64,000 nt of DNA, from the NCBI GenBank assembly GCA_963804385.1, contig CAWDQD010000036.1:13250-77249 (forward strand), in the 5' to 3' direction. Numbering within the stretch: the stretch's first letter is position 1; each line of letters begins with the position of its first letter. The stretch is from an uncultured Candidatus Micrarchaeota archaeon (lineage in GTDB: Archaea > Micrarchaeota > Micrarchaeia > Anstonellales > Bilamarchaeaceae). The notes beneath the pieces are model-generated. The model saw only the letters and a program-made list of their open reading frames with translations. It did no database searches and was not told the DNA's origin. Below are positions 2,270 through 40,951 of this stretch, piece after piece. Both the position numbers and the translations under genes were made by a program.

Positions 2270-4249
2270 TCATTTTATCTTCCTGAGGAGCTCCTCCTTC
2301 TTTTTGCCATCGGCAAGCGCATGCTCGAGGACCTCGTGGATGTCGTTCACCTTGATTATCTCGATCTTGTCGCGCTTGTCTTTCGGGAGGTAGACGTCCT
2401 CGGCATTGGCTGAGGGGATGAGCGCGGTCTTGATGCCGGTCTCTATCGCGGCCTCTATCTTGCCGGTCACGCCGCCCACAGGGAGGACCCTGCCGCGCAC
2501 ATCGAGCGAACCGGTCATCGCGACGTCCTGCTTCACCGGAATGCCGGAAAGGGCGGATATCACCGCCACCGCGGTCGAGATGGAAGCGCTGTCCCCTTCC
2601 ACGCCTTCGTATGTCTGGAGGTATTGTATGTGGAGGTCCATCCGCGATATCTCTGTGCCTATGTATTTCTTGAATATGGCGGAAACATTATCTACTGCCT
2701 CTTTCGCTATGGTCCCGAGCTTCCCTGTCGCTATCACGCGGCCTTCGCTCCTCGAAGCGGAAGGCGTGGCTTCCGCGACTATCGGGAGGACCAATCCTGA
2801 GCGCGAATCGCCGAGAATGGCGAGCCCGTTCACGCGGCCGACTTCCGCGCCTTTGGTGATTATGGTCTGGTACTCCTTTTTCATCTCAATCATCTTGGCA
2901 CCGACCTGGCTCTCCACGGAGCGGAACACCTGCTTGGCTTCGACCACGTCGGACTTCAGGACCAGCTGGTGCGATCTTTCCTTGGCGACATCCCCTGCCG
3001 CGCGGACTAGGCCGCCGAGCTCGCGCAGGTTGAGCGAGAACCTCTTCCTCCGTCCCGCCATGCGCCTCGCTTCCTCGATTATCTCGTTCACGGCATCCGC
3101 ATCGAAATGCGGGATCTTCCCGTCGCGCTTCACTTCCTGCGCGATGAAGCGCACGAGCTTCTCCTCGTTCTCCGGAGTGTCCTCCATGGAATCCTCCACG
3201 TAGACGTCGTATCCTCCGCCCCTGACACGAGATCGCAGGGCGGGGTGGATGTTCACCATGTCCGGGACGTTGCCCGCGGCGACGAGCACGAAATCGGTCG
3301 GCACCGGCTGCGTCTTCACCAATGCGCCCGAGCTCATCTCGCTCTGGCCCGTGATCGGGTATTTCTTCTCCTGCATGGCCGTGAGTATCTCCTGCTGCGA
3401 GTTCAGCTTCATCGAAGCGATCTCGTCTATGAAGAGCACCCCCTTGTTCGCCTGGTGGATCGCCCCGGCCTCCACACGGAGGTGAGCCGGCGTTCCGAGG
3501 CCGCCTGACTGCAACGGATCGTGCTTGATGTCCCCTAGAAGGGATCCCGACCGCGAACCGGTCGCATCTATGAATGGCGCCGTGGATTTGTCGCTGTTGT
3601 CGATTATCAGCTTCGGCCCGACGGACTCGTTCGACATGAGGCGTCGGCCGAGCCCGGACGTGGCGTTCGATATTATGAACAGGAGGCCGAGGCCCAGAAT
3701 CGAGACCACTGCGAGGAGTTTCATGCTGTCCGGGATCTCGCTTGAGAAGGCGATCGCCAGCAGCAATATCCCGGCCAAGGCGATTATGAGGAACGATGAG
3801 GGGCCCTTCTGGTCATCCTTGGGCTTCTGGTAGTTCATTATCCTGCGCCCCAGACCGAAGCGGAGCTGCTTTGCCAGATCCAATTTAAGCTTCGGGTCGT
3901 CGGCCGCCCTCTTTATCTTCGCTAGCTCTTGCGGCGAGTAGAATTTCACGAATTCGGGGTTCTTCTTGATATACTCTGCGTCGGGGAAGGCTTTCAGCAC
4001 CCGCACCAATGGCTGGTTCTCGTTGTTCGGGTTCGGATACACGAGCACGTCTTCGAGCTCCTCCTTCTGCATCAGCTCGGCCATTGCCTGGGCCATCATG
4101 CTCTTGCCTGTGCCCGGCGGTCCGACTAGAAGCACGTTCCTTTTCTGCCTGGCGGCCTTCTTCACTATGTCGACCGCCTTATCCTGGCCGATTATCTGGT
4201 CTATCAGCCGTTCCGGTACAGGTACATCTGCCGTGGTCGTGTATTTCAT
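2270..4249 (-). CDS. lonB: Membrane-bound archaeal Lon protease (LonB)
   Basis: Walker A GPPGTGKS, hydrophobic insert [16 protein letters not shown]...[11 protein letters not shown], Walker B VLFIDEI, and a Lon proteolytic domain [24 protein letters not shown]. The start is moved from 4303 to the ATG at 4249 ([22 protein letters not shown]). That start sits 26 nt downstream of a TATA-like box and matches the usual LonB N-terminus. Confidence 0.9.
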
Positions 4250-4274
4250 CGGTAATACTGAGAGTATTAGGTGT

Positions 4275-4281
4275 ATAAATG
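4275..4281 (-). promoter_or_regulatory. TATA-like box for leaderless lonB
   Basis: The minus-strand sequence ATTTATA lies about 26 nt upstream of the proposed ATG at 4249. Confidence 0.4.
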
Positions 4282-4373
4282 TTTTTCCGTATTTTCGGGC
4301 CAAATCCGGCCCTGTGGGGTGGTTTTATAAGCATAATTAACCATCAATTTTAACCTATATTGAGGGAAATCCG

Positions 4374-5393
4374 ATGCATATGGGCAATGGCGGAGGGAGA
4401 TTAGCTAGCGATGCTTCAGCCGCCGCCACGAAACGGTTCGGCAGTTATGAAGTTGAGACCGAGCGCTCGGCTAGGACACATCAAGTGGGATCGAATCCTG
4501 CCTTGGATGGGATATGGGGAGCGTGGGCGGCTTGCAGACTCGGGATATATTTTGGCGGTAGCCAGCTACAGAGGAGTTATGAGAAGATCCTTTATGGGAT
4601 AAGGGAACTAAAATATTCCGCGGCTGATATCGAGTCGCTTTCCCTTGAGCTCATCAATTGGCAAGGTGAAGAAAGTTTCTCGGAGAAAGCAGGTCTTTTC
4701 CTGAGCGCATTGATAAACACCTCCCAAGAGGATGGATTCGTCATCCATACCGCGAATCTGAATCGCATAAATCTCATAGGATACTGCAACGAGAAGGAAG
4801 TCATTGTGAAGGGGAATTGCAATAGGGGGGTCGGCTCTGAAATGAAAGGGGGTAGTATCCAGGTCGACGGGAATGCCGAGGAGATCGGGTCTGGCATGGA
4901 ATGCGGCAAAATAACAGTGAATGGAAACGCGGATGGCAATATCGGATGGTTCATGAAAGGCGGGGAGATAACGGTGGAAGGAAATGCGGGCGAAGTCGGC
5001 AGATGCATGTTCAATGGCTCCATCACTGTGACTGGAGATGTTGAGCAGCTTGGGTGTCATATGCTTGAGGGCACGATCCTTGTGGGGGGAAACACGGGGG
5101 ATAATTTATGCTTGAATATGTCTGGCGGTTTGATAACGATACGCGGGAATGCAGGTATCGGGATTGGACAGGGACAAAACGGCGGATCAATAACTGTGAA
5201 CGGGAACGCGGGCGAATTGCTTGGCATCCAGATGGCAGATGGGATAATCATGGTGAATGGGAATGCTGGCAAAGATATCGGCTTGGAAATGAGCGGGGGA
5301 GAGATCCACATCGATGGGGATCAGCCTCGCATAAGCGATGAACTCGTATCAGGCAAGGTCTTCCACAAGGGCAGATTGATATTCGAAAAGTGA
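4374..5393 (+). CDS. GXGXG beta-helix repeat protein, paralog A (FwdC/GltB C-terminal-like repeats, novel N-domain)
   Basis: The roughly 150-aa N-domain shares KAGLFLSALIN..EDGFVIHTA with the next three ORFs. It is followed by 9 units of 18-19 aa of the type GNAG..IG..M.GG.I.V.G. A GAGGG Shine-Dalgarno sequence lies 8 nt upstream of the ATG. Confidence 0.75.
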   Translation: MHMGNGGGRLASDASAAATKRFGSYEVETERSARTHQVGSNPALDGIWGAWAACRLGIYFGGSQLQRSYEKILYGIRELKYSAADIESLSLELINWQGEESFSEKAGLFLSALINTSQEDGFVIHTANLNRINLIGYCNEKEVIVKGNCNRGVGSEMKGGSIQVDGNAEEIGSGMECGKITVNGNADGNIGWFMKGGEITVEGNAGEVGRCMFNGSITVTGDVEQLGCHMLEGTILVGGNTGDNLCLNMSGGLITIRGNAGIGIGQGQNGGSITVNGNAGELLGIQMADGIIMVNGNAGKDIGLEMSGGEIHIDGDQPRISDELVSGKVFHKGRLIFEK

Positions 5394-5397
5394 CCCC

Positions 5398-6135
5398 ATG
5401 GATGCTGCATACCAAATTATAAGAAAAATCCCGCCTACGCTGGCAGCTTCCAGGATGTTCAGGGGATTCAATCTAGAAACCGAGCGCCCGGTAAGAGCAC
5501 GACAAGTGGAATCGAATCAAGTCCTTGAGGATATGAAAGGGCTGTGGGCAAGATTCAGCATCGATAACAGGGTACTGACTGATGAAAACGCATATGCCGA
5601 GACGCATGAAGAAGTAAGAAAGCTGGGGCATTCCGCGGATGATGTGGAGGAATTTTCCATCGCGCTCGCTGAATTCCAGGGCGAACCGGATTTCTCTGCT
5701 AAAGCAGGCGCTTTCCTCAGCATATTGATCAACGACTGCCGAGAAGATAAATTCGTCATCCATACTGCCCATATCACCAAGCAAATCCACCATATTGGGA
5801 CGCGAAACACGAAGGATATCATCGTGGAAGGAGATGCTGGCTATGCTGTCGGCTATTGTATGAAAAGCGGTTCGATTGCAGTGAAGGGGGATGCGGACCA
5901 TTCTGTCGGTTGCGGGATGAAAAGCGGGACGATAACCGTGAGGGGGAATGCAGGCACCAATGTCGGGATCAGGATGGAAGGCGGCACCATAATTGTCGAA
6001 GGGAATGCTGACGGTAATATCGGAGTTTGGATGAAAGACGGTTCCATAATCGTAAGAGGCTATGGCGGCAATGGCGCCAGCAAGGACTGCTCGGGCGGAA
6101 GCATAATCGTGGAATGCTGGCTGGGCAATAGGTGA
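5398..6135 (+). CDS. GXGXG beta-helix repeat protein, paralog B
   Basis: Same N-domain (TLAASRMFRGF..., KAGAFLSILIN..EDKFVIHTAH) followed by 5 GXGXG units. It starts 4 nt after paralog A. Confidence 0.75.
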   Translation: MDAAYQIIRKIPPTLAASRMFRGFNLETERPVRARQVESNQVLEDMKGLWARFSIDNRVLTDENAYAETHEEVRKLGHSADDVEEFSIALAEFQGEPDFSAKAGAFLSILINDCREDKFVIHTAHITKQIHHIGTRNTKDIIVEGDAGYAVGYCMKSGSIAVKGDADHSVGCGMKSGTITVRGNAGTNVGIRMEGGTIIVEGNADGNIGVWMKDGSIIVRGYGGNGASKDCSGGSIIVECWLGNR

Positions 6136-6140
6136 TTCTC

Positions 6141-6929
6141 ATGGAAACTGCACTTCAGGTTGAAAGAAGACCTACGAGACTTGCAGCATCCGGCAGATTC
6201 AGACAGTTCATGCCAGAGATTGAGCACGATGTGAGGATAGCCAAAGTCGAGATTAATCCGCAGCTCGAAGAATTGTGCGCGGTTTGGAGAAGGATCAAAG
6301 TTGCTGATGCCGTATATATCGCGCATTATTATAGCATGATTCGCGATGCGGCGGGAGGCCTCAGATATTCGGCAAAAGACGTCGAAACATTTTCCATCGC
6401 GCTCAGCGCATACCAAAGGGATGGATGGTTCCCGTACAAAGCCGGCCTTTTTCTCAGCGCTTTGATCAACATAAGCAAAGAGGACGAATTCGTCATCCAT
6501 ACCACTCATCTTGCCGAACCAGTCCATTATCTCGGAATATACAACACGAAAAGAATCTCTGTGCATGGGGATGCAGGGATGTATGCGGGCAACCTGATGA
6601 AGAGCGGCACGATGATCGTTGATGGGAACACTGATTTCCGTCTTGGTTGCGATATGAAGGGCGGATGCATAATCCTTAAGGGGGATACCGGGAATGAGGT
6701 CGGCTCGCGTATGGCTGACGGATCAATCGTCGTAGAAGGGAATGCCCATGATTTTGTCGGAGCGTATATGGATGGGGGCGAAATCACGATTGGGGGGAAC
6801 ACCCGGGGCCTTGGCCACCACATGAGGGGAGGCCGCATCTCCATCAACGGGAATTTTGAATTCATCTCCACAGGCCAGATGATAAGCGGGAAGATTTTCC
6901 ATAAGGGAGAATTAATCGTGGAAAAGTGA
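6141..6929 (+). CDS. GXGXG beta-helix repeat protein, paralog C
   Basis: Same architecture with 5 repeat units, ending GKIFHKGELIVEK. The ORF track starts at GTG 6132, but ATG 6141 (METALQVERR) aligns with the starts of paralogs B and D. Confidence 0.75.
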   Translation: METALQVERRPTRLAASGRFRQFMPEIEHDVRIAKVEINPQLEELCAVWRRIKVADAVYIAHYYSMIRDAAGGLRYSAKDVETFSIALSAYQRDGWFPYKAGLFLSALINISKEDEFVIHTTHLAEPVHYLGIYNTKRISVHGDAGMYAGNLMKSGTMIVDGNTDFRLGCDMKGGCIILKGDTGNEVGSRMADGSIVVEGNAHDFVGAYMDGGEITIGGNTRGLGHHMRGGRISINGNFEFISTGQMISGKIFHKGELIVEK

Positions 6930-6934
6930 TTCTC

Positions 6935-7663
6935 ATGGACGCTGCACTTCAGATTGAACGGAGATCTACGAGACTTGCGGCTTCCGGCAGGTTCGGCGCT
7001 TTCAAGTCAGAGAGCGAGCAGCGGGTCAGAAAACATGAAGTGGAATCGAATCATGCCGTCGAAAGTATGCGGGAGGCTTGGTTAAGATGCACCCCCGGAC
7101 CCAAAGAGATAGGAGCGCGTTACGAGATTTTTCTTGATGGGATAAAAGATTTGGAATATTCGGCTGGAGATGTCGGGTCCTTTTCCATCTTGCTATCCGA
7201 ATTCCGGGATGATGGTTTTTTCCGCACGAGCGCAGGGCTTTTCCTCAGCGCATTAATCAACAATTGCAAAGATGATGGATTCACAATCCACACGGCCCAT
7301 TTTACAGAGCCGATCTTCTTCATCGGATATAGGAACACGAAGGATATGACAGTGGACGGCGATGCCGAATCGACGCTCGGGGAAAATATGTTGGGAGGCT
7401 CCATAATCGTGGAGGGGGCTGCTAAGAATATGGTCGGAGAGCTGATGGAAGAGGGCTCAATAATCGTGAAGGGGGATGCTGGCGAGCATGTCGGCATAAA
7501 TATGAAAGGCGGCGTGATAACCGTGGAAGGCAATGCCAAAAAGGCTGCCGGCTGGCAAATGACGGGCGGCGAGATCCGTATAGAAGGCGATATCGAAAGC
7601 ATCGCCAAAAACCTAATCCACGGAAAGATATTCCACAAAGGGAGATTGATTGTGGATAAGTGA
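6935..7663 (+). CDS. GXGXG beta-helix repeat protein, paralog D
   Basis: Same architecture with 4 repeat units, ending GKIFHKGRLIVDK. ATG 6935 (MDAALQIERR) is preferred over GTG 6926. Confidence 0.75.
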   Translation: MDAALQIERRSTRLAASGRFGAFKSESEQRVRKHEVESNHAVESMREAWLRCTPGPKEIGARYEIFLDGIKDLEYSAGDVGSFSILLSEFRDDGFFRTSAGLFLSALINNCKDDGFTIHTAHFTEPIFFIGYRNTKDMTVDGDAESTLGENMLGGSIIVEGAAKNMVGELMEEGSIIVKGDAGEHVGINMKGGVITVEGNAKKAAGWQMTGGEIRIEGDIESIAKNLIHGKIFHKGRLIVDK

Positions 7664-7664
7664 T

Positions 7665-8906
7665 TCAGGACACTATCCTCACGTTCTTGAAAGCGATGCG
7701 CGGGGATATCAGCGAGCCGAAGGATTTCTGCCCTTTCTCTATCCCTTCGATGTTCGAGAGCATGTCGAATATGTTCCCGGTTATCATGAAGCCCTTGATC
7801 GGAGTCCGCTTGCCCTTCTCGACCAGGAACGCGGCGCTCGCTTCCAGCCCTATGTCCCCGGTAGTTGGGTTCGCGGTGTGGGAGCCGTGCGCGTAATGGA
7901 GCTCTATGAACCGATCCAATTCGCCGAAATCCGAGACATCTCCGGGAGATATGACGATGTTCGATGATCCGATGGATGGGGCGGAATCGTACCCGTCGCG
8001 GGTGCACACGCCAGGCTTGGGGCCCAGCGTGCCGCCTTGCCGGGCTTCCAGAGCGGACGTCTCGCGATCGTACATGAACGATTTCACAGCCCCGTTCTCG
8101 ACAAGCGGTTTTCTTTCAGACGGGGTGCCTTCGTCATCGAACGGCCTGCTCTCCGTGCCCTGGGCCAGACCGTCCTCGTACATGCTGAATTTTTCCGAGA
8201 ACAACTTCGCCCCGACGGATAATCTCGTTATGCCGCGGCGCTTCCAGTCTCCTGAGAATGAAGGGATGAACGTGTCCAGGAGGCTCATGAGGGCTTCGGG
8301 CTCCGCCACCAAGGTGTAGGTCCCGGATTCGGGCTTCTTCGCCCCGCGCATGTCGGAGGCCATCCGCCCTGCTTCGGTGCCCAGATCATGCACGGACGAT
8401 GGCCGCTTGCACGAGCCCAGATACCCTGATCCGTATCCGTCATCGTGCATGCACTCGATGTAAAGCGAGAAATCGGTCTTGTCGTACTCGCCCCGGAACC
8501 CTTCGGTGTTCTCGAGGCTGACGTGCGAGCGACTGACCGACAGCATGACGCGCGCTTTCCCGCCGAGGGCTTCAGCGCCGTCGCGCGCCTCGTCCACGAA
8601 GCCGCGCAGGGACTGGTAGTCATCAGTTGAAAGCGACGAATCGGATATGTCGGATTTCGGATAGGATGAGGACGGGGGGAACGAGAAGCCGCTCTGCACC
8701 GAGAAACGGGACATCTTCTTCGCCTCTTCCACGGTTTTCTTCAGGTCATCCGATTTCTGGCAGTACGCGAAGCCCAGCCGCCCCTTGTCGAATGCGCGGA
8801 CGCCATAGCCCAGGGAAGAGTCCATCTCTTTCGTCTTGAGCTCGCCGCTAGAGAAGAGCAGGGATATGGAATCTGCGGAGAGCGAATACACCTCATGGAT
8901 GGACAT
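7665..8906 (-). CDS. TldD/PmbA-family metallopeptidase
   Basis: The N-terminus GYGVRAFDKGRLGFAYCQ and the C-terminus HGSHTANPTTGDIGLEASAAFLVEKGKRTPIKG are typical of the PmbA/TldD fold. The product is 413 aa. Confidence 0.8.
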   Translation of the reverse strand: MSIHEVYSLSADSISLLFSSGELKTKEMDSSLGYGVRAFDKGRLGFAYCQKSDDLKKTVEEAKKMSRFSVQSGFSFPPSSSYPKSDISDSSLSTDDYQSLRGFVDEARDGAEALGGKARVMLSVSRSHVSLENTEGFRGEYDKTDFSLYIECMHDDGYGSGYLGSCKRPSSVHDLGTEAGRMASDMRGAKKPESGTYTLVAEPEALMSLLDTFIPSFSGDWKRRGITRLSVGAKLFSEKFSMYEDGLAQGTESRPFDDEGTPSERKPLVENGAVKSFMYDRETSALEARQGGTLGPKPGVCTRDGYDSAPSIGSSNIVISPGDVSDFGELDRFIELHYAHGSHTANPTTGDIGLEASAAFLVEKGKRTPIKGFMITGNIFDMLSNIEGIEKGQKSFGSLISPRIAFKNVRIVS

Positions 8907-10317: not shown

Positions 10318-11241
10318 TCAGCCGAGCAGCGAGGCCAGCGTCTGGTTGATGTTCGCGTATTGCGGGCTCGCGAGGATGACGTACGTCTTCTGGTCGCTCG
10401 TGAGACCCCAATTGAAGCCGCCTGCCGCAGCTGCCGCGGAGACCTTATCTTTCGTGACCTTGCTCGCATCCACGAGGATATAGAATGTAGGCGTGCCCGC
10501 GCTGCCGGTGTTGGCTTCCGAGACGGTCTGCCATTCGCTCGTGAACTCGCTGACTTCCGAAACGTACGTGTTGTTGCTCAAGCACGCGGTGAATGCTGCG
10601 GTGTTCAGTCCGGTCACATTGGCCGCGATGGTCGTGAGGTTGGAGATGGAGTATTTACCATCGTCCTCGTTCGGGTCCTGGGCGTTGAACAGGGCGTTGT
10701 ACATGCCCCAGAACTTGCCCTGGGCGCCGGCGCACATTGACGCATCGGCCGCATTCGTGGATTCCTGCCCCAGGAATGCGAGCGGCATGACCTGGAAGTT
10801 GGCCTTGCCGGTCGTGACATAGTCGCTCTCGTATTGCTGCACGGTGCCGGTGATATCGGCGTATTGGGCCGAGTATTCCTTGCCCCACGCCAATCCGCAG
10901 TACGGGCACTGGAAGTCGAAGAACTCCAATACGGTGACCGCGTTGCTCGGAGAGCCCTCGAGCGGAGCTATGCTCAGAGACTGGGGGATCTGCATCGTAG
11001 TGCCCGATGTGGGTGCAGCTTGGGTCGGCTGCGTGGGCTGGGTCGGCTGTTGCTGGGCCGCTTGAGCAGTGTTATTAGTCCCTGACGGGCAGGTCGTGTT
11101 GCAGACCGGGCATGCCGCAGGTGCGGATTTTGCCAATCCGAACCCTTGCGTGAATATGGATAGCACAACGAGGCAGGCGAGTATGACGATCGCCGCTCCA
11201 TAAAGCGTATCCTTTCCAACAGTAACTGTGTTTTCAGCCAA
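10318..11241 (-). CDS. Membrane-anchored DsbA-like thiol:disulfide oxidoreductase, paralog 1
   Basis: Thioredoxin-fold active site FFDFQCPYCG, an N-terminal TM anchor AAIVILACLVVLSIF, and a CPVCNTTCPSG motif plus a QPTQPTQPTQ linker. The start is set to TTG 11241 (MAEN...), which is shared with paralog 2 and lies 4-5 nt after GAGGTGAT. The ORF track uses GTG 11250. Confidence 0.75.
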   Translation of the reverse strand: MAENTVTVGKDTLYGAAIVILACLVVLSIFTQGFGLAKSAPAACPVCNTTCPSGTNNTAQAAQQQPTQPTQPTQAAPTSGTTMQIPQSLSIAPLEGSPSNAVTVLEFFDFQCPYCGLAWGKEYSAQYADITGTVQQYESDYVTTGKANFQVMPLAFLGQESTNAADASMCAGAQGKFWGMYNALFNAQDPNEDDGKYSISNLTTIAANVTGLNTAAFTACLSNNTYVSEVSEFTSEWQTVSEANTGSAGTPTFYILVDASKVTKDKVSAAAAAGGFNWGLTSDQKTYVILASPQYANINQTLASLLG

Positions 11242-11347
11242 ACATATCACCTCAACTAGGGAATAAGCAGCGGTACTATCCGTTGCAGGTATTTAATTGT
11301 ATTGAAATGGTTCAGAAAAAGAAGATAGAAAAAAGAAAGGGGCGGTC

Positions 11348-12220
11348 TCAGTACGAGACCTTGCTCAGCACCGCATCGAACGCCGCATACGGGAACGCGC
11401 CTGGAACGAGGACGATGTAGTCGTCGGTGTTCTCGTAGAGCGTCAAAGCACCCGCGCCATATTGCTGGTTCAATGCGCTCACTGCCGATGATATCGTATC
11501 ATTGCTGATCTTCGATTTCGGCACGATGATGAACGATGCGGGTGTACCCTGCACGCCGTATGTCTGGCCTTCCGCCTCATCAGCGTTTATAGCGTTCAGC
11601 GGCGTCTGGCTGGCATAGCAGCTCGCGAAGGTCGCGTTGTTGAGCCCGATTGCTTGAGCGTACTGGTAGAAGTACGAGCTCGGGTCCGAGGCTCCGCTCC
11701 AGTTAGCCTGGTTGGAGAACAGCTCGTCGTGCATCGCCCAGAACTGGTTCTGAGCGGCCGCGCATCCTGCGGCTATGGCTGCTGGCATCGCATTGGGGTG
11801 GAAGCTCAGCGGGAAGTTCCTGAAGTATATCTGGACCTTTCCCGAACTTACGTAGTTCGTCCTGATCCCGGCTTCTGCATCACCGTATAGCCTGCTGCAA
11901 TACGGGCACTGGAAGTCCGAGAACTGGACTATCGTGACCGGTGCGCTGGCCTGGCCTAGGGCAGGGTAGTTCCCGACAGCCACGCTAAGGCCGGGTGTCG
12001 AAGGCTGTGTGGGCTGCGTATTGTTAGCGAGATTTCCTGTCCCGCTCGGGCAGGTCGTGTTGCAGACCGGGCATGTGGTCACGGGTTTAACGACACCGAA
12101 GCCCTGCGTGAAGATAGATACCACAAGAAGGCATGCGAGTATGACGATCGCCGCTCCATAAAGAGTATCGGTTCCGATAGTGACTGAATCTTTTTTCGTA
12201 TTTCCAACATTTTCCGCCAA
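11348..12220 (-). CDS. Membrane-anchored DsbA-like thiol:disulfide oxidoreductase, paralog 2
   Basis: Active site FSDFQCPYCS with the same N-terminal anchor and the same CPVCNTTCPSG motif. It uses a TTG start after GAGGTGAT. Confidence 0.75.
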   Translation of the reverse strand: MAENVGNTKKDSVTIGTDTLYGAAIVILACLLVVSIFTQGFGVVKPVTTCPVCNTTCPSGTGNLANNTQPTQPSTPGLSVAVGNYPALGQASAPVTIVQFSDFQCPYCSRLYGDAEAGIRTNYVSSGKVQIYFRNFPLSFHPNAMPAAIAAGCAAAQNQFWAMHDELFSNQANWSGASDPSSYFYQYAQAIGLNNATFASCYASQTPLNAINADEAEGQTYGVQGTPASFIIVPKSKISNDTISSAVSALNQQYGAGALTLYENTDDYIVLVPGAFPYAAFDAVLSKVSY

Positions 12221-12290: not shown

Positions 12291-13382
12291 TCAGGGAACG
12301 ATAGCGTTCCCGCCCAGTTTTTTCGCCGCACCCAGCCGGAGCACGCACTCATCAAGCATCTTACGCCAGCCGACGCCCGCAGCGCTGCTGGCGATGCCGA
12401 AGCTGCAGGTGGCGCGGATATCGTCTTCTAGGGGCAGATCCAGGGAAAACGGTTCGCCTGCCACGGAGAGCCGCAACCAGTCGGCTATCTTGGCCGCTTC
12501 GGCTGCGGGCATCTGGAGCAACACGGCGAACTCATCGTGCTTCAGGGAGGGATTGGCTCCGGCTTCCGATTCTTTCCTGGCCCCATGCAGGAATTTGCTC
12601 TTCCCGGGCCTGAAGACCACGCTGCCCTTGTAACCGAGGACGGCCAGCTCATCGCGGAACCGATCCGCCACCCCCGCCAGCACGATGTCCCCTGCGGCAT
12701 AGCCATGGGTGGTGTTCAACTGCTTGAGGTCGTCTATGTCTGCGAGTATTATCGAGAATTCCTTGGATTCTCTCATGAAAGCGGCTTCAGCGGCTTGCGC
12801 GGCAGCCTCGAACGCCGCCGAGTTGGGAAGCAGCGTAAGGGCCCCTATGCGCGTGTGGAGCGCGTCGGAGAACAGGGCGCCGAGCTTGTTCATGATCAGC
12901 AGGGTCTCGCTTTCCGATGCATCCTGCACGCTGAGCTCCCTTTTGGAGAATATCATCAGGTTGTCTGCGAGATCCTCATCGGTCTTGAGCACGATGTCGG
13001 TCATCACCGCATGGCGCAGCGACTCGCACTCGTCCCCGCTCGAGACGGGAACGATGTGGTTTATCATCATCCTCCGGTCCGTGAAGCCCCTCACATAGCG
13101 GGTGTACCCCGGCCTCGCATCCGCGGTCGCGAGCTCCACCGCGATCACCCCATCGAAGGTCGCCGGAATCAGCTCCATGAGCTCGAAAAGGCTCGAACTC
13201 CCCGCGCATTTTTCTATCTTCTGCTTGGCGCTGAGATACCCGTTGGATGGAGATGGCGGTTCGGCCATGACCTGGCCGCCCCTGAACAAGCGTGGCCTGC
13301 GGATGTTCTGGGGGGAGGGAGCGGATTCGAAAACCCGGGCGAGGGTGATGGGGATGTCTACCATGTCGATCAACTTGAGCAA
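12291..13382 (-). CDS. GGDEF-fold (diguanylate-cyclase-like) protein with a degenerate, split signature motif and an unknown N-terminal domain
   Basis: The C-terminal half follows the GGDEF domain pattern: ILADIDDLKQLNTTHGYAAGDIVL ... VVFRPG-[about 22 aa]-KHDEFAVLL ... SFGIAS ... RLGAAKKLGGNAIV. No canonical GG(D/E)EF motif is present. Confidence 0.6.
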   Translation of the reverse strand: MLKLIDMVDIPITLARVFESAPSPQNIRRPRLFRGGQVMAEPPSPSNGYLSAKQKIEKCAGSSSLFELMELIPATFDGVIAVELATADARPGYTRYVRGFTDRRMMINHIVPVSSGDECESLRHAVMTDIVLKTDEDLADNLMIFSKRELSVQDASESETLLIMNKLGALFSDALHTRIGALTLLPNSAAFEAAAQAAEAAFMRESKEFSIILADIDDLKQLNTTHGYAAGDIVLAGVADRFRDELAVLGYKGSVVFRPGKSKFLHGARKESEAGANPSLKHDEFAVLLQMPAAEAAKIADWLRLSVAGEPFSLDLPLEDDIRATCSFGIASSAAGVGWRKMLDECVLRLGAAKKLGGNAIVP

Positions 13383-27336: not shown

Positions 27337-28581
27337 ATGCATCGTGCGGGCCAAGGATTGCTGCTTCTCTTATTGTTCACCATAGCTTCCGCAAGCCCGA
27401 CAGCCAGTGTACAGCCGATAGACCTCACGTTCGTGGTACCGATCATCGCCTTGATTGTCATAATATTCCTGGCTGCGGTCAACATGCTGGCCACGTCCAT
27501 CTCAGACCCTAAGCTCGAGGCCTGGGCGAAGACCGAGATACGGGAGTTCATAGTCGCACTCATCCTCATCGGCCTGATATTGGGCTTCTTCATAAGCTCG
27601 AACGGCATAAGCATAGCGCTGACAGGCACCACGGATTACGTGGGCCATTCCCAGACGATACTGGACAGCTGGCTCGGGAAATTCGACGACGCGTACGCCG
27701 GAGTCATACTCGCCGCGGCGAGGGTGAGGGTCGCGGCCACATTCGCGCCGTACATAAACGTCCCGCTATGGTACGTCTCGATAAGCTATTCCACGAACCC
27801 TCTCGCGGGCATCGCCATCATACTCACCACGCTGACCATGGCGACGCAGGGGCTCACGAACGCCATCTTCCTGATAGAGGCCGTGAGGATGCTCATAATA
27901 TATATGAAGGTGGTCGGACCGAAGATCCTGCTCCCGCTCGCATTCATGATCAGGTTGATACCGTTCAGCCGGAGGCTGGGCAACACCCTCATCGCCCTCG
28001 CCTTGGCAGGAATGGTATTGCTCCCGTATTCGGTGATAGTCGCGGATGCGCTGAACGGGACCATCCCACCAGCCATAATGCCAGCCCCGCATCTGAGCGC
28101 CGGCGACCTGAGGAGCATGATCCCGGAGCCGCTCTCTTTGATCACATCCACTGTGGGGCCGCTCTGCCAATCGGCGTTCATCAGGACGATGCTCGGCCTC
28201 ACGGACCCGCTGTTCGCTCTCGTCGTATGCTCCCCCCTCCTGCTCATTCCGTTCGTGGGAGAAGGCCTGTTCGCCGCATGCTTCCCTCTGGTGCAGTATG
28301 TCATCTATCCGCTCATAACCGAGATACTCCAGCTCGTGATGGCGGCGCTCCTGCTCACGTGGGAAGCGGCCATAGTGGCGAGGGATGCGGTCGCATCGAC
28401 CAACTACGGCCTGGACGTATACGGCACGCTCCAGACTTTCCTGATGGCCATCAACGACCTGGTGCTGCTCATCTATCTTGATATAATCATAATCATGACA
28501 TTCACTGTAGTGGGAGCGAGAAGCATCTCGACCGCGCTCGGCGGCGAATGGTATATGGCGGGCATACAGAGGCTGGTATGA
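27337..28581 (+). CDS. Paralogous polytopic membrane protein MP1 (unknown family)
   Basis: 414 aa with a signal-like N-terminus, a TM, motif SDPKLEAWAKTEIREF, a second TM, a loop, motif LLPLAFMIRLIPFSRRLGNTLIALALAGMVLLP, further TMs and the tail LGGEWYMAGIQRLV. Confidence 0.8.
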   Translation: MHRAGQGLLLLLLFTIASASPTASVQPIDLTFVVPIIALIVIIFLAAVNMLATSISDPKLEAWAKTEIREFIVALILIGLILGFFISSNGISIALTGTTDYVGHSQTILDSWLGKFDDAYAGVILAAARVRVAATFAPYINVPLWYVSISYSTNPLAGIAIILTTLTMATQGLTNAIFLIEAVRMLIIYMKVVGPKILLPLAFMIRLIPFSRRLGNTLIALALAGMVLLPYSVIVADALNGTIPPAIMPAPHLSAGDLRSMIPEPLSLITSTVGPLCQSAFIRTMLGLTDPLFALVVCSPLLLIPFVGEGLFAACFPLVQYVIYPLITEILQLVMAALLLTWEAAIVARDAVASTNYGLDVYGTLQTFLMAINDLVLLIYLDIIIIMTFTVVGARSISTALGGEWYMAGIQRLV

Positions 28582-29585
28582 TGAACAAACTCGCGCTCTT
28601 CATGCTCCTGCTATGCTCGGCCGCGTTCGCCAACATGGCGTGCATGGCAAACGCCACGGATGTCATACTGGGCCAGGCGAACGGCGTGCAGGGCCTCATA
28701 ATCGTGGTCATCATCTTCACGATAGTCATAATAGCGCTTGCGTACACGATCGGGACCGCAGCCAACAACCCGTCGCTCACCATATTCGCAAAGGACGAGA
28801 TATACCACCTGGGTTTCTCGATACTCATCCTCCTCGCCATGAGCGGCATCGTGCTCACATCCTGCTCGGTGATAGATTTCTTCAGCGCATCCGTCTTCGC
28901 GAACGCCGGGATCACCACGACGACGTGCTACAACAGCGGCAGCTCGATGACGAGCGTGGCCACGTGCTATGCCAAGTCCGCGCTGGATGACGCGCAGCAG
29001 ATGTCTACGGTCTACATCCAGAAATATCTCGACAACATAATGGATTCCACGATGTCGTGGAGTCTGCAGTTCCCGCTCTTGAATTCCTACACGTCCACCG
29101 CGGCATCGTACAAGAGGATCGTCTCGAACCAGTATGATATGATACTGAACTCGTTCCTGATCCCGGCCATGATGAGCATCAGCATGCAGAAGCTCGCGCT
29201 GCAGTTCATCGACGGCAACGTGGTCACATGGCTGCTGCCGATCGCGTTCCTGCTCCGCATCTTCATCCCGACGAGGCAGATGGGGAACATGCTCATAGCG
29301 CTCTCGCTCGCGCTCTATGTCATCGTCCCTTTCCTCTACGTGTTCAATTTCGCCATGTACGATTCCCTGCTTAGCAAGAGCGACTGCTCGGAGTTCTCGG
29401 GAGCGGTATGCGACTATGTGGCGGACGGAGGCAACTGCACCCCGGATTCGGTCTGCACCAACACGGAAGGGTTCTGGATGGTGGCCAGATTGATACCCCA
29501 GGCGTTCTTCCTTCCGAACCTGACGATAGTAATAGTCATAACGTTCCTTACCGCGATGAATAAGGCACTGAAGGTGATGGGATGA
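28578..29585 (+). CDS. Paralogous polytopic membrane protein MP2
   Basis: 335 aa, joined to MP1 by an ATGATGA overlap. Motifs NNPSLTIFAKDEIYHL and LLPIAFLLRIFIPTRQMGNMLIALSLALYVIVP are present, with a shorter C-terminal tail. Confidence 0.8.
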   Translation: MMNKLALFMLLLCSAAFANMACMANATDVILGQANGVQGLIIVVIIFTIVIIALAYTIGTAANNPSLTIFAKDEIYHLGFSILILLAMSGIVLTSCSVIDFFSASVFANAGITTTTCYNSGSSMTSVATCYAKSALDDAQQMSTVYIQKYLDNIMDSTMSWSLQFPLLNSYTSTAASYKRIVSNQYDMILNSFLIPAMMSISMQKLALQFIDGNVVTWLLPIAFLLRIFIPTRQMGNMLIALSLALYVIVPFLYVFNFAMYDSLLSKSDCSEFSGAVCDYVADGGNCTPDSVCTNTEGFWMVARLIPQAFFLPNLTIVIVITFLTAMNKALKVMG

Positions 29586-31774
29586 AGAAACTGCTCGCGC
29601 TCCTGGCCCTGTTCCTGCTAGTCGGGATGGCTTCTGCAGACAGCAATGTCACGCAGATATTCCAGCAGAAGACGACGAATTCGGCCCTGGAAGTAGCGAA
29701 CAACTGGATGGTGCTCTCCATCATCGCCATCATGATATCGATCATACTCGTCGCGATGGCTTACGCGGTGGGCATCGGCTTCGAGATGCCCGAGCTCCAG
29801 GCATGGGCCGGAAACGAGCTCGTCCAGGTCTTCACCAACGCGATCATGATCGCGGCGCTGATCGGTGCCATAGCTTTCATCGAGATAGTCGTCATCGGGA
29901 TAGCCGCATCGAGCGGCATAAACGTCCCCGAATGCATGCCCACGGGCTCGGGCGTCGCGCCGAGCGGAGCCACATGCCTCCAGGCGGTCACGCAACGATA
30001 CCTCGACAATTACATCAACACCGCGATAGACAAGTCCAAAGGCGTGCTGAAGAACAACGTGGATGCTGGCGGCTGGATGAACCGGAGGCTCGGCCTCACG
30101 TGCATATCCATATACTGCCTCCAGGTCAGCGTATCCGGAACGTTCGCGGCGCAGAATGTCCTGAACATGGACAAATACGGCATCGTGTTCGAATACTATT
30201 CCAACCTCCTGTCCTTCATGGAGTCCCAGCGGTTCTTCGTGATGGCGATATCGTTCAATATGGCCCCGGTGGTGCTCGCGATAGGGATTGTGCTGCGCAG
30301 TTTCTTCTTCTCGAGGAAACTCGGCGGGCTGCTGATGGCGATAGCGATAGGCGTGATGTTCTTCTTCCCGGGGATGTATATCTTCGACTGGCTGACGCTC
30401 AACACGGTCACAAATGGGGATCAGGCGTATGGGCAGGAGACGCAGAACTGCCCTTCGGAATGCCTGATAGAGACCCCGCTCGCGTACCTGAAGGAAGGGA
30501 CGAGCACGATGGCGTTCAACGACACCGAAAGCATCTACCTGGCCTTCAGCGACGAGAATACCGCCGAAGGGATCATAAACGGGAGCCTGGATTCCGCACA
30601 GGCGACTACGACCAATAGCACATATTTCGCGTATAACCAGAATGTCCAGTCCTGCTTCCCATACAACAACGGCACCAAGCTGGGGCCGAACATAAACGGG
30701 AATTACGCGAGCCAGTGCCCCACGGTCTGCAGGGAGCTGCCATACCCCACCGCGCCGGATTGCGTGAACCTCACATCGGGCGTCGCCTACGCGTGCGCAG
30801 CGGTTCCTGCCGAATGCAAGGTGACGAGGCTCGTGCCCAGCGACGAGATAAACCAGACGGAATACGATAGCTGCCCCCTGGCCTGCAAATCCATCCCGCC
30901 GCTGCGGAGCAACTGCGATCTCGATGCCACGAACAAGAACCAGACCGGAGGCACCTGCCTCAATTCGTCTTTCGAGTGCCGGATGGCATACATAAACGAG
31001 TCGCCGACCTTCAAGTCGAGGGCGACCAAGCCGTCGCAGGCCAGCTCTTCCGTGGTGCAAGCATGCAACTACGCCAAGGACTGCGTCGTCAGCCTGAATG
31101 CGAGCCAATCCTGCACATTCGTCGTCCCGCCCACAGGGACATGCGATGACATCTGCGCGGGCTGCCCCTCGGTGTGCCGGGTAGCTGATTTCTGGAACGG
31201 GAGCGTCCCGTCCAGCCAGCTCCCATCCGTTTGCACGGGAAAAGACCCCGTAACCGGCACGGACGTCTCCGCGCAGTGCCGAAAATGCCATGCGGGCTGC
31301 GAGGTCACCGAATCGGATCTGCAGGCGGACAAGGAAGCCGCGACCGCCACCGGGAACTGCACGTCCTGCAACTGGGACCATCTGCTGACCGGAGGCACGA
31401 ACATGCCTTACGAGTACACGAACGGCAATTGCGGGGACGACAGCTGCCCGGTGCAATACCGCACGGACATACCGTTCAACGTCTGCGAATCATGCCTCTT
31501 CGATGAGTCAGAGTACATGTACAACCCTCCGATAAACACCGAATGCTCGGACATCTGCAAACCGCCGGACAACGCTCCGGTGAACCAGCCGGGCACCAAT
31601 ATAGGAGGGGACGGGCTGGCCGGAGACGCGGACATACAGGACCTGTCCAGGCTCATGGTGCCGGTCTACGTGCTGCCGCTGTTCAACATCGTCGCGACAT
31701 TGGTGTTCATCAAGGGTCTATCAACATTCCTAGGAGGGGACGTCGAGATCCCGGGCATATCGAAGGTGTTCTGA
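29582..31774 (+). CDS. Paralogous polytopic membrane protein MP3 with a roughly 370-aa Cys-rich extracytoplasmic insertion
   Basis: 730 aa, joined to MP2 by an ATGA overlap. Motifs EMPELQAWAGNELVQV and VLAIGIVLRSFFFSRKLGGLLMAIAIGVMFFFP and the tail LGGDVEIPGISKVF are present. An insertion with about 35 Cys and many NxS/T sequons lies between the core and the last TM. Confidence 0.8.
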   Translation: MKKLLALLALFLLVGMASADSNVTQIFQQKTTNSALEVANNWMVLSIIAIMISIILVAMAYAVGIGFEMPELQAWAGNELVQVFTNAIMIAALIGAIAFIEIVVIGIAASSGINVPECMPTGSGVAPSGATCLQAVTQRYLDNYINTAIDKSKGVLKNNVDAGGWMNRRLGLTCISIYCLQVSVSGTFAAQNVLNMDKYGIVFEYYSNLLSFMESQRFFVMAISFNMAPVVLAIGIVLRSFFFSRKLGGLLMAIAIGVMFFFPGMYIFDWLTLNTVTNGDQAYGQETQNCPSECLIETPLAYLKEGTSTMAFNDTESIYLAFSDENTAEGIINGSLDSAQATTTNSTYFAYNQNVQSCFPYNNGTKLGPNINGNYASQCPTVCRELPYPTAPDCVNLTSGVAYACAAVPAECKVTRLVPSDEINQTEYDSCPLACKSIPPLRSNCDLDATNKNQTGGTCLNSSFECRMAYINESPTFKSRATKPSQASSSVVQACNYAKDCVVSLNASQSCTFVVPPTGTCDDICAGCPSVCRVADFWNGSVPSSQLPSVCTGKDPVTGTDVSAQCRKCHAGCEVTESDLQADKEAATATGNCTSCNWDHLLTGGTNMPYEYTNGNCGDDSCPVQYRTDIPFNVCESCLFDESEYMYNPPINTECSDICKPPDNAPVNQPGTNIGGDGLAGDADIQDLSRLMVPVYVLPLFNIVATLVFIKGLSTFLGGDVEIPGISKVF

Positions 31775-32841
31775 TGAAGAAACTGGCATTGCTGCTGTTG
31801 CTCATCCCGCTCGCGTTCGCGGCATGGCAGGCCACGGCAGCGCTCGCCATAGTGACTTCGGTCAGCCTGCTCGCCCTATTGTATATGATAGGCATGGGGT
31901 TCGGGATCAACGAGCTGCAGCTGACGGCCAAGGAGGAGTTCTTCCAGGTCATCGCCGTCGCGATCATGATGGTCCTGCTCGTGGGCTCGGACGGCGTGCT
32001 CAACACGATATCGAACAATGTGGCTTTCAGCGGCTCCGGCACCAACATGCAGGACGGGGCCATGATGATCATAAACGACACCACCACGAACGTCACGAAC
32101 CTGTTCAACACGATAACCAGCATCGATCACACCATAGCCAATGAAGCGTCCAAAGGCGGCTCGTGCAATATCATACAGGTAGGGTATTCGGTCAGCGCAT
32201 GCGGCGGCTACAGCATGCTGCCCACGCCCATGTCCATGGCCGGCAGCATAGCCGGCTTCGCGCTCGGGGAGCTGGCCGCCATGTACAAGCTGCTGGAGAT
32301 AGCCACGCAGTTCGGCCTCTCGTTCCTGCTTCCGCTGGGCATAATACTGCGCACATTCAAGCTCACGCGCGGGGCCGGCGGATTCCTGATCGCCCTTGGC
32401 ATATCGATGTACATACTCCTGCCTATGGGGATCATATTCAACGAGATGATGGCTGTCACGTTCATAAGCACGGCAGGGACCAGCAGCCCGGATGCGGCCA
32501 ATGTCGCGCAGTACGCCCCGGTGAGCGGCACGCCGAGCATACCCTCATGCAATCCGCTGGACACCGGATCCTTCATGTCCGGGCTGGGCACCCCGGTCAG
32601 TTGCGGCTCCGGAGGGGGCAATGCCCTTAGCAACACGTTCCTCGGGGGGAGCAACGATGCGAACGCGGTCGGCACATACTGCATGTTGAGGGGAGACATC
32701 AAGGGCTACCTATACGTCATGCTCATCCAAGCCACGCTCGGCCCGGTGATAGCCCTCCTGATGATGATAGCGGGCATAAGGACGCTGAGTTCGATAGCGG
32801 GCGCTGAAGTCGACGTCACAGCGATCTCGAGGTTTGTCTGA
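31774..32841 (+). CDS. Paralogous polytopic membrane protein MP4
   Basis: 355 aa, joined by a TGATG 1-nt overlap. Motifs GINELQLTAKEEFFQV and LLPLGIILRTFKLTRGAGGFLIALGISMYILLP and the tail AGAEVDVTAISRFV are present. The track ORF start at 31543 is an out-of-context extension inside MP3. Confidence 0.8.
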   Translation: MKKLALLLLLIPLAFAAWQATAALAIVTSVSLLALLYMIGMGFGINELQLTAKEEFFQVIAVAIMMVLLVGSDGVLNTISNNVAFSGSGTNMQDGAMMIINDTTTNVTNLFNTITSIDHTIANEASKGGSCNIIQVGYSVSACGGYSMLPTPMSMAGSIAGFALGELAAMYKLLEIATQFGLSFLLPLGIILRTFKLTRGAGGFLIALGISMYILLPMGIIFNEMMAVTFISTAGTSSPDAANVAQYAPVSGTPSIPSCNPLDTGSFMSGLGTPVSCGSGGGNALSNTFLGGSNDANAVGTYCMLRGDIKGYLYVMLIQATLGPVIALLMMIAGIRTLSSIAGAEVDVTAISRFV

Positions 32842-33944
32842 TGTCTCTCACGAAGTTCGCTCTGCTCGCGCTCCTGGTATCATCGATGGCATGGGCAGAC
32901 ACCGTGATGTGCGGCAGCGGCACCGTGTTCGACAACGCGGTGCTCCCCCTCCTCGCATACGCTTCCGTGGGCACGATGATACTCATCGCATTGAGCTATA
33001 TGGCAGGGACCGCATTCTCGAACCCCAAGCTCACGCTGTGGTCCAAGACAGAGATCGTCCAGCTGGTCATATCGATCGCTTCGGTCGCGCTGATCATGCT
33101 CGCGGTCACGACGTTCTGCTCGATAGACATGCATGAGATCGCGGGCATATTCAGCCTCCCCGGCACCCACCCCAGCATCAACGTCTACGACGCCGCGAAG
33201 GATTACCTCGAAGGCTCCGTGAACTATTCGCACAACGCCATGATAATGGTGAGATACCACCTGGAGGCGTACACGGTGCTCTCGTATTTCAACGCGTTCA
33301 TCTGCGACTACAACATCGGCCGTATCGGCCTGGGATGCTTCTTCGGCTATTCGGGAGACACCGAGCAGCCCTTCGGAGGGTACGGAGCGGTAATCGCCGC
33401 GTTGAACGTGTTCTTCAACTCCACGATCATCGCGTACTTCACCGCGCTCAATTTCCTGTTCATACTCCTGTTCATCTACCACGGTTTCGTCTTCCTGTTC
33501 CTGCCGCTGGGGGTTTTCCTCCGCGCCCTCCCGTACATGCGTCCGGTGGGCTCGCTGCTGATAGCGCTCGCGCTGTCGTTCCTGACGATCTACCCGCTCA
33601 TGCTGGGGATATACTACCTGATGAGCCCGGTGCTTCTGGACACCCCGGCGTATGCGCCCGCGGGGATCAATATGGGCAACTACGGGGAGAGCATATTCCC
33701 GGATTCCACGAACCCGGCATCGCAGCTGGCGGTCAGCACGGCAGGCGAATCGTATGTGCATGACCATTATTTCGGGGGCGGCAAGGAGAACCTGGGCGGC
33801 GCGATCGCGTTCTCGGCTGACGCGTTCATCGCGGCAGTGTTCTTCCCGACCTCCGCGCTGCTGGCCGCGATAGCGAGCGTCGCTTACATGGCCAGGATGA
33901 TGGGCGAGGAGATAGATTTAAGCAGGCTAACGCAATTGGTGTAG
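32841..33944 (+). CDS. Paralogous polytopic membrane protein MP5
   Basis: 367 aa, joined by a TGATG 1-nt overlap. Motifs SNPKLTLWSKTEIVQL and FLPLGVFLRALPYMRPVGSLLIALALSFLTIYP and the tail MGEEIDLSRLTQLV are present. Confidence 0.8.
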   Translation: MSLTKFALLALLVSSMAWADTVMCGSGTVFDNAVLPLLAYASVGTMILIALSYMAGTAFSNPKLTLWSKTEIVQLVISIASVALIMLAVTTFCSIDMHEIAGIFSLPGTHPSINVYDAAKDYLEGSVNYSHNAMIMVRYHLEAYTVLSYFNAFICDYNIGRIGLGCFFGYSGDTEQPFGGYGAVIAALNVFFNSTIIAYFTALNFLFILLFIYHGFVFLFLPLGVFLRALPYMRPVGSLLIALALSFLTIYPLMLGIYYLMSPVLLDTPAYAPAGINMGNYGESIFPDSTNPASQLAVSTAGESYVHDHYFGGGKENLGGAIAFSADAFIAAVFFPTSALLAAIASVAYMARMMGEEIDLSRLTQLV

Positions 33945-33946
33945 GT

Positions 33947-40898: not shown

Positions 40899-40951
40899 GA
40901 CAAGGCTTATCGATGAATAAGATTAATAAGGTGCTAAGCTGAGTTCTGGTG

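Follow-up and report, generated by a model that had tools for sequence, protein, structure and literature searches.

What might be the role of proteins that carry the beta-helix of formylmethanofuran dehydrogenase and glutamate synthase when no partner subunit of either enzyme is encoded near their genes? The question is raised by four co-oriented paralogous genes, A to D, which lie on the plus strand at positions 4374-7663 of a 64,000-nucleotide stretch of DNA (as a whole called the window here) from an uncultured Candidatus Micrarchaeota archaeon. The encoded proteins of 339, 245, 262 and 242 amino acids belong to a multigene family, named F1 here, whose members consist of a conserved N-terminal peptide or tag, a four-helix bundle and a beta-helix. 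This beta-helix is homologous to that of FwdC, the C subunit of formylmethanofuran dehydrogenase, and of FhcC, and more distantly to the C-terminal domain of glutamate synthase.

A known beta-helix behind a novel helix bundle

Gene A (4374-5393, +) encodes the longest of the four proteins. Its N-peptide is the most divergent of the copies, and behind it come the helix bundle, nine GXGXG turns and, as the C-terminal tail, GKVFHKGRLIFEK. Gene B (5398-6135, +) has the N-peptide, the bundle and five turns, gene C (6141-6929, +) has the same elements and the tail GKIFHKGELIVEK, and gene D (6935-7663, +) has four turns and the tail GKIFHKGRLIVDK. The sizes of C and D refer to ATG starts; alternative GTG starts at 6132 and 6926 (both +) would give 265 and 245 amino acids, respectively. 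B, C and D are 39-44% identical to A over their full length, and the product of D is identical to the database protein P0001.

Segmentation of the C-terminal halves delimited the 9, 5, 5 and 4 GXGXG units, which are 18-19 residues long. A degenerate extra last turn in A, C and D forms the tail GK(V/I)FHKG(R/E)LI(F/V)(E/D)K. B is the sole paralog of the four that has no such tail, and thereby no C-terminal hairpin, and ends in IIVECWLGNR; its last turn meets the B/C junction directly, as if the 3' end had been deleted or were the scar of a recombination. All four proteins exceeded the gathering threshold of the Pfam family PF01493 (GXGXG), marginally in three cases (42.4, 39.9, 32.7 and 33.9 bits for A to D versus 32.5), and all four matched the FwdC model TIGR03122 with E values from 1e-21 to 1e-48. 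The best sequence matches in the PDB were also FwdC proteins (9sfi_R, 2.5e-21; 5t5i_C, 2.2e-20), and these spanned residues ~141-241 only. A Foldseek search with the full model of D retrieved 5t5i_C (FwdC), 6s6y_C (FhcC) and 7mfm_G at a probability of 1.0, with matches via the helix, and the glutamate synthase entries (7mfm, 1ofe) at probabilities of 0.6-1.0.

The model of D was generated with AlphaFold2 from an alignment of 16 sequences and had a mean predicted local distance difference test (pLDDT) score of 86.4; a second run with the N-terminal part alone was concordant. Residues 1-38 (6935-7048, +), which comprise the conserved peptide RLAASGRFGAFKSESEQRVRKHEV, had pLDDT values below 50 in both runs and are predicted to be disordered, and the conserved block LAASGRFGxFKxExExxVRxxxV falls inside this region. 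Residues 40-110 (7052-7264, +) are predicted to form a four-helix bundle (helices 40-52, 59-70, 77-90 and 96-110), mostly with pLDDT values above 90. The beta-helix begins at about residue 116, and its first turns are also covered by the FwdC profile (from positions 42-52). Residues 116-242 (7280-7660, +) comprise this right-handed GXGXG beta-helix of the FwdC/FhcC/GltB type and a subsequent two-strand C-terminal hairpin, according to AlphaFold, Foldseek and the PDB matches. The bundle probably caps the N-terminal end of the beta-helix, so that both ends appear capped in the model, by the bundle at one end and by the hairpin at the other, which counts against a simple end-to-end stacking of beta-helices.

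The N-terminal part had no sequence match in Pfam, NCBIfam or the PDB, a PDB profile search with 28 N-parts yielded no relative (best E value 0.19), and neither did Foldseek with the N-part alone (best PDB E value 3.2). The four-helix bundle is novel in that it has neither a sequence nor a fold match among the entries of Pfam, NCBIfam, the PDB and Foldseek. Within the family, the conserved N-terminal blocks LAAS.RF..F..E.E..VR, YSA.DVE.FS and KAG.FLSALIN...F.IHT.H....G..NTK hold across 28 and 168 members, and among the 168 members conservation reaches at least 95% at the peptide residues F20, E26 and R32. The motif of the tag can be written as h-x-A-x-x-x-F-x-(R/K/G)-(Y/F)-x-P-E-x-E-x-x-V-R. 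Interpretation of the (F/Y)KPE motif as a SUMO-like psi-K-x-E was rejected because the lysine is not conserved among the paralogs of the window. By hydropathy and motif reading, the N-peptide has neither a hydrophobic core nor a twin-arginine motif, and thus no Sec, Tat or class III pilin-type signal. The products are acidic, and their maximal Kyte-Doolittle values in 19-residue windows are 0.71-0.97, without any hydrophobic segment; they are predicted to be soluble proteins.

These results agree in most points with the original prediction, which had been made from the DNA letters and a list of open reading frames (ORFs). It had described four tandem paralogs of the sizes given above, their 9, 5, 5 and 4 repeats of 18-19 residues, the identity of the repeat with the FwdC/GltB GXGXG motif, the common C-terminal ending of three of the four ORFs and the conserved N-terminal blocks, all of which could be retrieved. 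It had also proposed an unrecognised N-domain of 130-150 amino acids. The lack of recognition stood up to the searches for known families which it had named as a check, while the notion of one domain did not, as the region consists of the disordered peptide, the bundle and the first helix turns.

On three of the features tested, the proteins do not qualify as members of the FwdC family, namely the curated score (for B to D), the N-terminal region and the genomic partners. The TIGR03122 scores of A to D were 164.6, 93.8, 100.7 and 76.0 bits, respectively, with a curated equivalog cutoff of 130.65 bits; A alone is above this cutoff, through the sum of three repeat matches. The scores with NF042910 (65-136 bits) were far under its cutoff of 340. 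The FwdC profile matches to A to D start at model positions 42-102, and a FwdC-type N-terminal region is missing. A Pfam scan of all window ORFs of at least 200 amino acids revealed no FwdA/B/D or glutamate synthase domain, in line with the predicted lack of a Fwd or Glt partner gene; fwdA/B/D or fhcA/B/D genes were found neither among these ORFs nor beside the arrays at 23 loci, and amidotransferase, central and flavin mononucleotide (FMN) domains or gltD were found neither in the window nor at the related loci.

A multigene family of Micrarchaeota and its shared tag

How common is this architecture? An exhaustive profile search with the F1 N-part over 1.84 billion cluster representatives (clusters at 50% identity) retrieved 1,473 clusters at E values of at most 1e-3, 1,081 at 1e-10 and 238 at 1e-30. 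This number overturned the impression of a rare family that had been given by a word-indexed search with the N-part, which had found 14 proteins. When one genome of each GTDB species was scanned with sequence patterns, 19 loci were identified, all of them in metagenome-assembled genomes (MAGs) of Micrarchaeota and several per genome; the patterns, built from seven closer sequences, were strict, and the finding of Micrarchaeota only is thus a lower-bound picture. Among all sources that could be named, F1 is restricted to Micrarchaeota. This is also the lineage (DPANN) of the host of the window, the SBDS protein of which shares 75-78% identity with proteins labelled Candidatus Micrarchaeota, Micrarchaeia, ainarchaeum or Bilamarchaeum. 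No description of F1 was found in the literature. A phage, virus or defence origin was considered and rejected, because no PADLOC model matched F1 under an E value of 0.026, tblastn against phages gave no match, IMG/VR contained no relative, and the best match among the viral structures of BFVD had an E value of 0.15.

Hidden Markov model searches over the fetched loci showed arrays of 2-12 co-oriented members. A contig of Ca. ainarchaeum (L014) has 11 F1 genes together with one gene of a second family, F2, which is described below. At least 15 F1 copies are distributed over four contigs of the MAG Sv348, and the MAG nzgw32 has at least 12. The original prediction had asked whether the genes always occur in tandem arrays and always next to Lon or TldD/PmbA, and both questions have to be answered in the negative. 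A lone copy is present at ~8 of the 23 independent loci, and thus arrays are common, not universal. The flanks of the arrays vary with the lineage and include GlnRS and RNR, or MCM, RFC and XPD, or PmbA and LigT. The Lon/PmbA neighbourhood is limited to the syntenic relatives L004-L006, and other arrays adjoin unrelated genes. All-against-all clustering of the flanking genes at the 23 loci revealed no recurrent non-family neighbour beyond orthologous synteny (GlnRS and RNR, at three loci), and a general link of F1 to Lon/TldD was therefore rejected. No 1:1 orthology was found between A to D and the paralogs of the syntenic locus L004, every pair of which is 29-52% identical. Five proteins of 451-529 amino acids (P0017, P0019, P0042, P0106 and P0142) are fusions of two complete F1 units, and in four of these five the second unit has no N-peptide.

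The N-terminal peptide is also found outside F1. Most Micrarchaeota arrays hold, inside or beside them, one or two genes of F2, a family of ~260 amino acids in which the first ~45 residues carry the F1 motif and the remainder is unrelated to F1. An hhalign comparison of the F1 N-parts with F2 gave a probability of 96% and an E value of 2e-9, limited to the N-terminal ~53 columns. There are 164 detectable relatives of F2; the named ones are all annotated as 'hypothetical protein' of Micrarchaeota, and at least six copies are present in Sv348. F2 matched nothing in Pfam, PADLOC or the PDB. Representatives were located in L002 (6199-6987), L014 (1084-1875), L024 (9833-10636), L015 (42-815 and 5862-6716), L017 (1-840), L019 (853-1686 and 1655-2533) and L020 (7472-8548, minus strand); the window itself contains no F2 gene. 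Judged by sequence, the ~40-residue N-terminus is a separable tag that is common to F1 and the unrelated F2.

The tag also differs from the rest of the N-part in its evolution. Identities were determined region by region for 57 paralogs over the N-terminal 145 profile positions, within and between genomes. For the N-peptide the values were 0.49 within and 0.32 between genomes (ratio 1.54), for the helix bundle 0.46 and 0.42 (ratio 1.11), and for the first helix turns 0.48 and 0.44 (ratio 1.10). These identities show that the copies of the N-peptide are homogenised in each genome. In L002, three genes, F2 included, are 83-100% identical at the nucleotide level from -30 to +120 of the ATG, with a sharp drop beyond. 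In the window the effect is moderate: C and D are 81% identical in the first 25 codons (72% at third positions) and 60% over the whole gene, and in steps of 30 nucleotides the identity is 83-87% over the first 60 nucleotides. The earlier observation that the 5' ends of C and D are more alike than the remainder was thus correct, and its explanation by gene conversion or a recent duplication is supported, more clearly by the relatives (L002 and the ratio of 1.54) than by the window. The apparent conversion tract corresponds to a junction cassette composed of the upstream tail, the spacer and the N-peptide.

Gene junctions and surroundings of the array

The junctions between the genes are short and similar. 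At the A/B junction (5390-5400, +), GTGAC, which holds the TGA stop codon of A, is followed by CCC and the ATG, with a spacer of four nucleotides. At the B/C junction (6132-6143, +), the Shine-Dalgarno-like GTGAT holds the TGA stop codon of B and is followed by TCTC and ATG, and the cassette at the C/D junction (6926-6937, +) is identical. As had been predicted, the B/C and C/D genes are either separated by five nucleotides, if the ATG codons are used, or overlap by the four nucleotides GTGA, if translation starts at the GTG codons. In a survey of 45 intra-array junctions, the upstream stop codon was TGA in 38, the last sense codon was AAG in 25, and an ATG was located five nucleotides past the stop codon in 27. 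GTGAT is also kept 4-5 nucleotides ahead of the ATG where the upstream gene ends elsewhere, e.g. in tagGTGATattcATG and caaGTGATcctcATG. The 3' end of archaeal 16S ribosomal RNA (rRNA) contains AUCAC, with which GUGAU can pair; the window contains no rRNA gene. As GTGAT keeps its position irrespective of the upstream stop codon, the shared junction element gtgattctcatgg / gtgattctcatgga is interpreted as a GUGAU ribosome-binding (Shine-Dalgarno-like) motif with an ATG start codon. The family alignment and the GTGAT-N4-ATG consensus favour the ATG codons as the likely true starts of C and D, and the arrangement points to array genes that are set up for translational coupling.

Transcription of the four genes as one operon might start from an archaeal promoter at the TATA-like element TTTTATAAG (4323-4331, +), ~45 nucleotides ahead of the start codon of gene A. 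No other obvious candidate for a promoter was seen, and this one was identified by inspection alone; a bacterial sigma-70 promoter and terminator scan is not applicable to an archaeon and was uninformative. The array is flanked by a divergent gene for LonB (2270-4303, -) next to A and by a convergent gene for PmbA/TldD (7665-8906, -) next to D. The GC content of the region 4001-8000 is 0.51, with a strongly positive GC skew of +0.15 to +0.18, and that of both flanks is 0.585.

Several other features of the window deserve mention. In addition to LonB, a protein of 587 amino acids encoded at 40949-42712 (+) has a Lon_C protease domain, and no AAA+ domain is detectable in it. Two adjacent DsbA/thioredoxin-like paralogs (10318-11250 and 11348-12220, both -) each have an N-terminal hydrophobic segment followed by CPVCNTTCPSG. 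The window also encodes a GGDEF-domain protein (12291-13382, -; Pfam E value 1e-13, partial match), the gene for which is conserved in position in the related contig L004; cyclic di-GMP signalling is unusual in archaea. The region 23418-39297 contains very large ORFs that had no Pfam hit, one of 1404 amino acids on the minus strand followed by six of 345, 730, 432, 367, 349 and 1690 amino acids on the plus strand. A gene for a Fic/DOC protein (45121-46086) is found near that of a HerA-like DUF87 ATPase (46945-48447, -), with an unannotated ORF of 267 amino acids between them. A tRNA of 124 nucleotides at 58801-58924 (+) was detected by Rfam (53 bits) and missed by ARAGORN, and presumably contains an intron. 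It overlaps the 5' extension of a nitroreductase ORF on the opposite strand (58173-58925), the start of which is thus probably located further downstream.

Possible roles and comparison with known systems

What, then, might the F1 proteins do? The reading that we prefer, with a confidence somewhat below even, is that they have no catalytic activity and serve as beta-helix modules, which bind via the N-peptide to each other and, where it is present, to F2. The paralogs of an array would be made together in fixed proportion by coupled translation, and they would associate with one another and, in most Micrarchaeota, also with one F2 member. The shared N-terminal peptide would act as a docking arm, or 'plug', and we infer that the outcome would be a hetero-oligomeric scaffold, the size of which would be set by the paralogs present and their helix lengths. 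The original prediction had likewise suggested a hetero-oligomeric scaffold or a filament, an idea to which the coupled operons and the natural fusions lend indirect support only. Joint action is suggested by the two-unit fusions, the coupled expression and the presence of one or two F2 genes per array, and a specific constraint on the N-peptide by the conservation of F20, E26 and R32 together with the homogenisation within genomes. Nevertheless, several points weigh against such an assembly. About a third of the loci have a lone F1 copy, and thus hetero-oligomers would not be obligatory. The helix bundle, the candidate 'socket', does not co-vary with the peptide in a genome-specific manner (1.11 versus 1.54), a result that a common partner outside the family would explain at least equally well. 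The near-invariant residues D79, S105, T120, H122, N134 and K136 at the junction of bundle and helix could form a ligand or catalytic site rather than belong to a pure scaffold. In addition, the compact genomes of DPANN archaea often have tightly spaced genes, and such spacing alone is no proof of complex formation.

An external partner is the core of the main rival explanation, in which the N-peptide is a sorting or recognition tag that is read by a separate machinery (for export, possibly to the host, for loading of a compartment, or by a dedicated chaperone or protease), and F1 and F2 are clients rather than partners. A short disordered peptide that is common to two unrelated multi-copy families of one lineage would be well explained in this way, and expanded tagged families are typical of effector or sorting systems. 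Homogenisation of the peptide alone would be expected for one genome-specific receptor, and it would agree with the lack of a genome-specific signal in the bundle. Four of the five fusions have kept just the first peptide, as if it were needed once per polypeptide, which fits such a tag and an assembly equally well. However, no candidate for a receptor, translocase or peptidase recurred beside the arrays in the clustering of flanking genes, the flanking position of LonB and PmbA/TldD is confined to close relatives of the window, and the peptide has no Sec, Tat or class III feature and no hydrophobic stretch. We regard this explanation as somewhat less probable than the assembly. It is less probable still, and should be taken as speculation, that the ~40-residue peptide is the address label of an undescribed targeting or assembly system of Micrarchaeota, with one destination for F1 and F2 and kept uniform by 5' gene conversion. 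The destination could possibly be a dedicated receptor or translocon, perhaps with delivery to the host cell that DPANN archaea such as these depend on, or a large modular intracellular structure, and the arrays with their conserved junction cassettes would serve in addition as a substrate for recombination, by which the length and content of the helices are shuffled.

The conserved residues of the N-part raise the possibility, improbable in our view, that the surface of the bundle and the first turns is a putative ligand, metal or substrate site, and that F1 proteins are enzymes or binding proteins with the beta-helix as a stalk. Among 168 members, D79 (97%), E81 (87%), Q91 (89%), S105 (98%), N109 (92%), H119 (80%), T120 (93%), H122 (89%), N134 (96%) and K136 (96%) are highly conserved, and the HTxH motif is specific for F1 and absent from FwdC in alignments with the PDB FwdC sequence. 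The NTK motif, by contrast, is also present in FwdC, the N-part resembles no enzyme fold or family in Pfam, NCBIfam, Foldseek or the PDB, and a dozen or more paralogs in a tiny genome would be unusual for an enzyme. Furthermore, the beta-helix domain of FwdC and glutamate synthase is regarded as architectural (PDB 5T5I and the glutamate synthase literature). Least of all can we believe that F1 proteins are divergent genuine FwdC or GltB-domain-3 subunits, the Fwd, formyltransferase/hydrolase or glutamate synthase of which is encoded elsewhere in the genome. The score of A above the TIGR03122 cutoff (164.6 versus 130.65 bits), the top rank of FwdC and FhcC among the PDB sequence and fold matches, and the labels of some members in IMG as FwdC or 'glutamate synthase domain-containing protein 3' would agree with this view, but B, C and D are under that cutoff and the NF042910 cutoff of 340 is far off, a different fold takes the place of the FwdC N-terminal region, no fwdA/B/D or glt genes are present in the window or beside any array, and 12-15 or more copies per genome are present. 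Moreover, Micrarchaeota are not known to have Fwd or glutamate synthase pathways. The F1 proteins are thus very unlikely to be subunits of formylmethanofuran dehydrogenase or glutamate synthase.

This has a practical consequence. Long members pass the FwdC equivalog threshold, as ORF A does, and IMG already names some members 'formylmethanofuran dehydrogenase subunit C', so that false calls of C1 metabolism in DPANN genomes are possible. Micrarchaeota genomes have a size of roughly 1 Mb, and a dozen or more F1 copies in such a small genome, together with the tag-sharing F2, likely matter for the lifestyle of these archaea. A disordered tag that is homogenised per genome and carried by unrelated families offers a concrete starting point for tests of whether DPANN archaea possess a new system of assembly or targeting.

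Among known systems, FwdC/FmdC/FhcC (TIGR03122; 5T5I chain C, 6S6Y chain C) are the closest sequence and fold matches of F1. They share with it the right-handed beta-helix built from the same unit of 18-19 residues, G(N/D)AG..(V/I)G..M.GG.I.V., and the NTK motif at the start of the helix. The N-terminal region of FwdC (profile positions 1 to ~41-50) is replaced in F1 by the disordered tag and the four-helix bundle. Unlike FwdC, F1 has a variable number of turns (4-9 in the window) and a conserved GKIFHKGxLIVDK tail, and it is a multi-copy family that forms tandem arrays in Micrarchaeota without a fwdA/B/D context. The C-terminal GXGXG domain of the large subunit of glutamate synthase (PF01493; 1OFD/1OFE, 7MFM) has the beta-helix fold in common with F1, and its likeness is weaker than that of FwdC (NF008730, E value 0.003); F1 proteins differ from it in standing alone, as amidotransferase, FMN or central domains are neither fused nor adjacent to them.

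Two further comparisons are analogies only. Bactofilins (PF04519) are, like F1, small beta-helical proteins with disordered terminal tails. They often occur as several adjacent paralogs that co-assemble, and they polymerise through open helix ends, whereas the ends of the F1 helix are apparently capped; no Pfam hit to bactofilins was obtained at E values of up to 1, and the Foldseek match to 2n3d had an E value of 5.2 and a probability of 0.02. Leaders of the NHLP/Nif11 type and the N-domains of LXG and other polymorphic toxins are short N-terminal modules that are common to otherwise unrelated proteins; no similarity of F1 or F2 to them was detected. F1 and F2 resemble these leader-type systems in the conserved N-terminal module on different downstream domains, the tandem genes and the recombination at junctions, and differ from them in being full-size folded proteins without an associated processing or export gene. 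What sets F1 apart from all these systems is the new architecture into which a known beta-helix fold is built, together with the lineage-specific expansion of the family and the tag that it shares with a second family.

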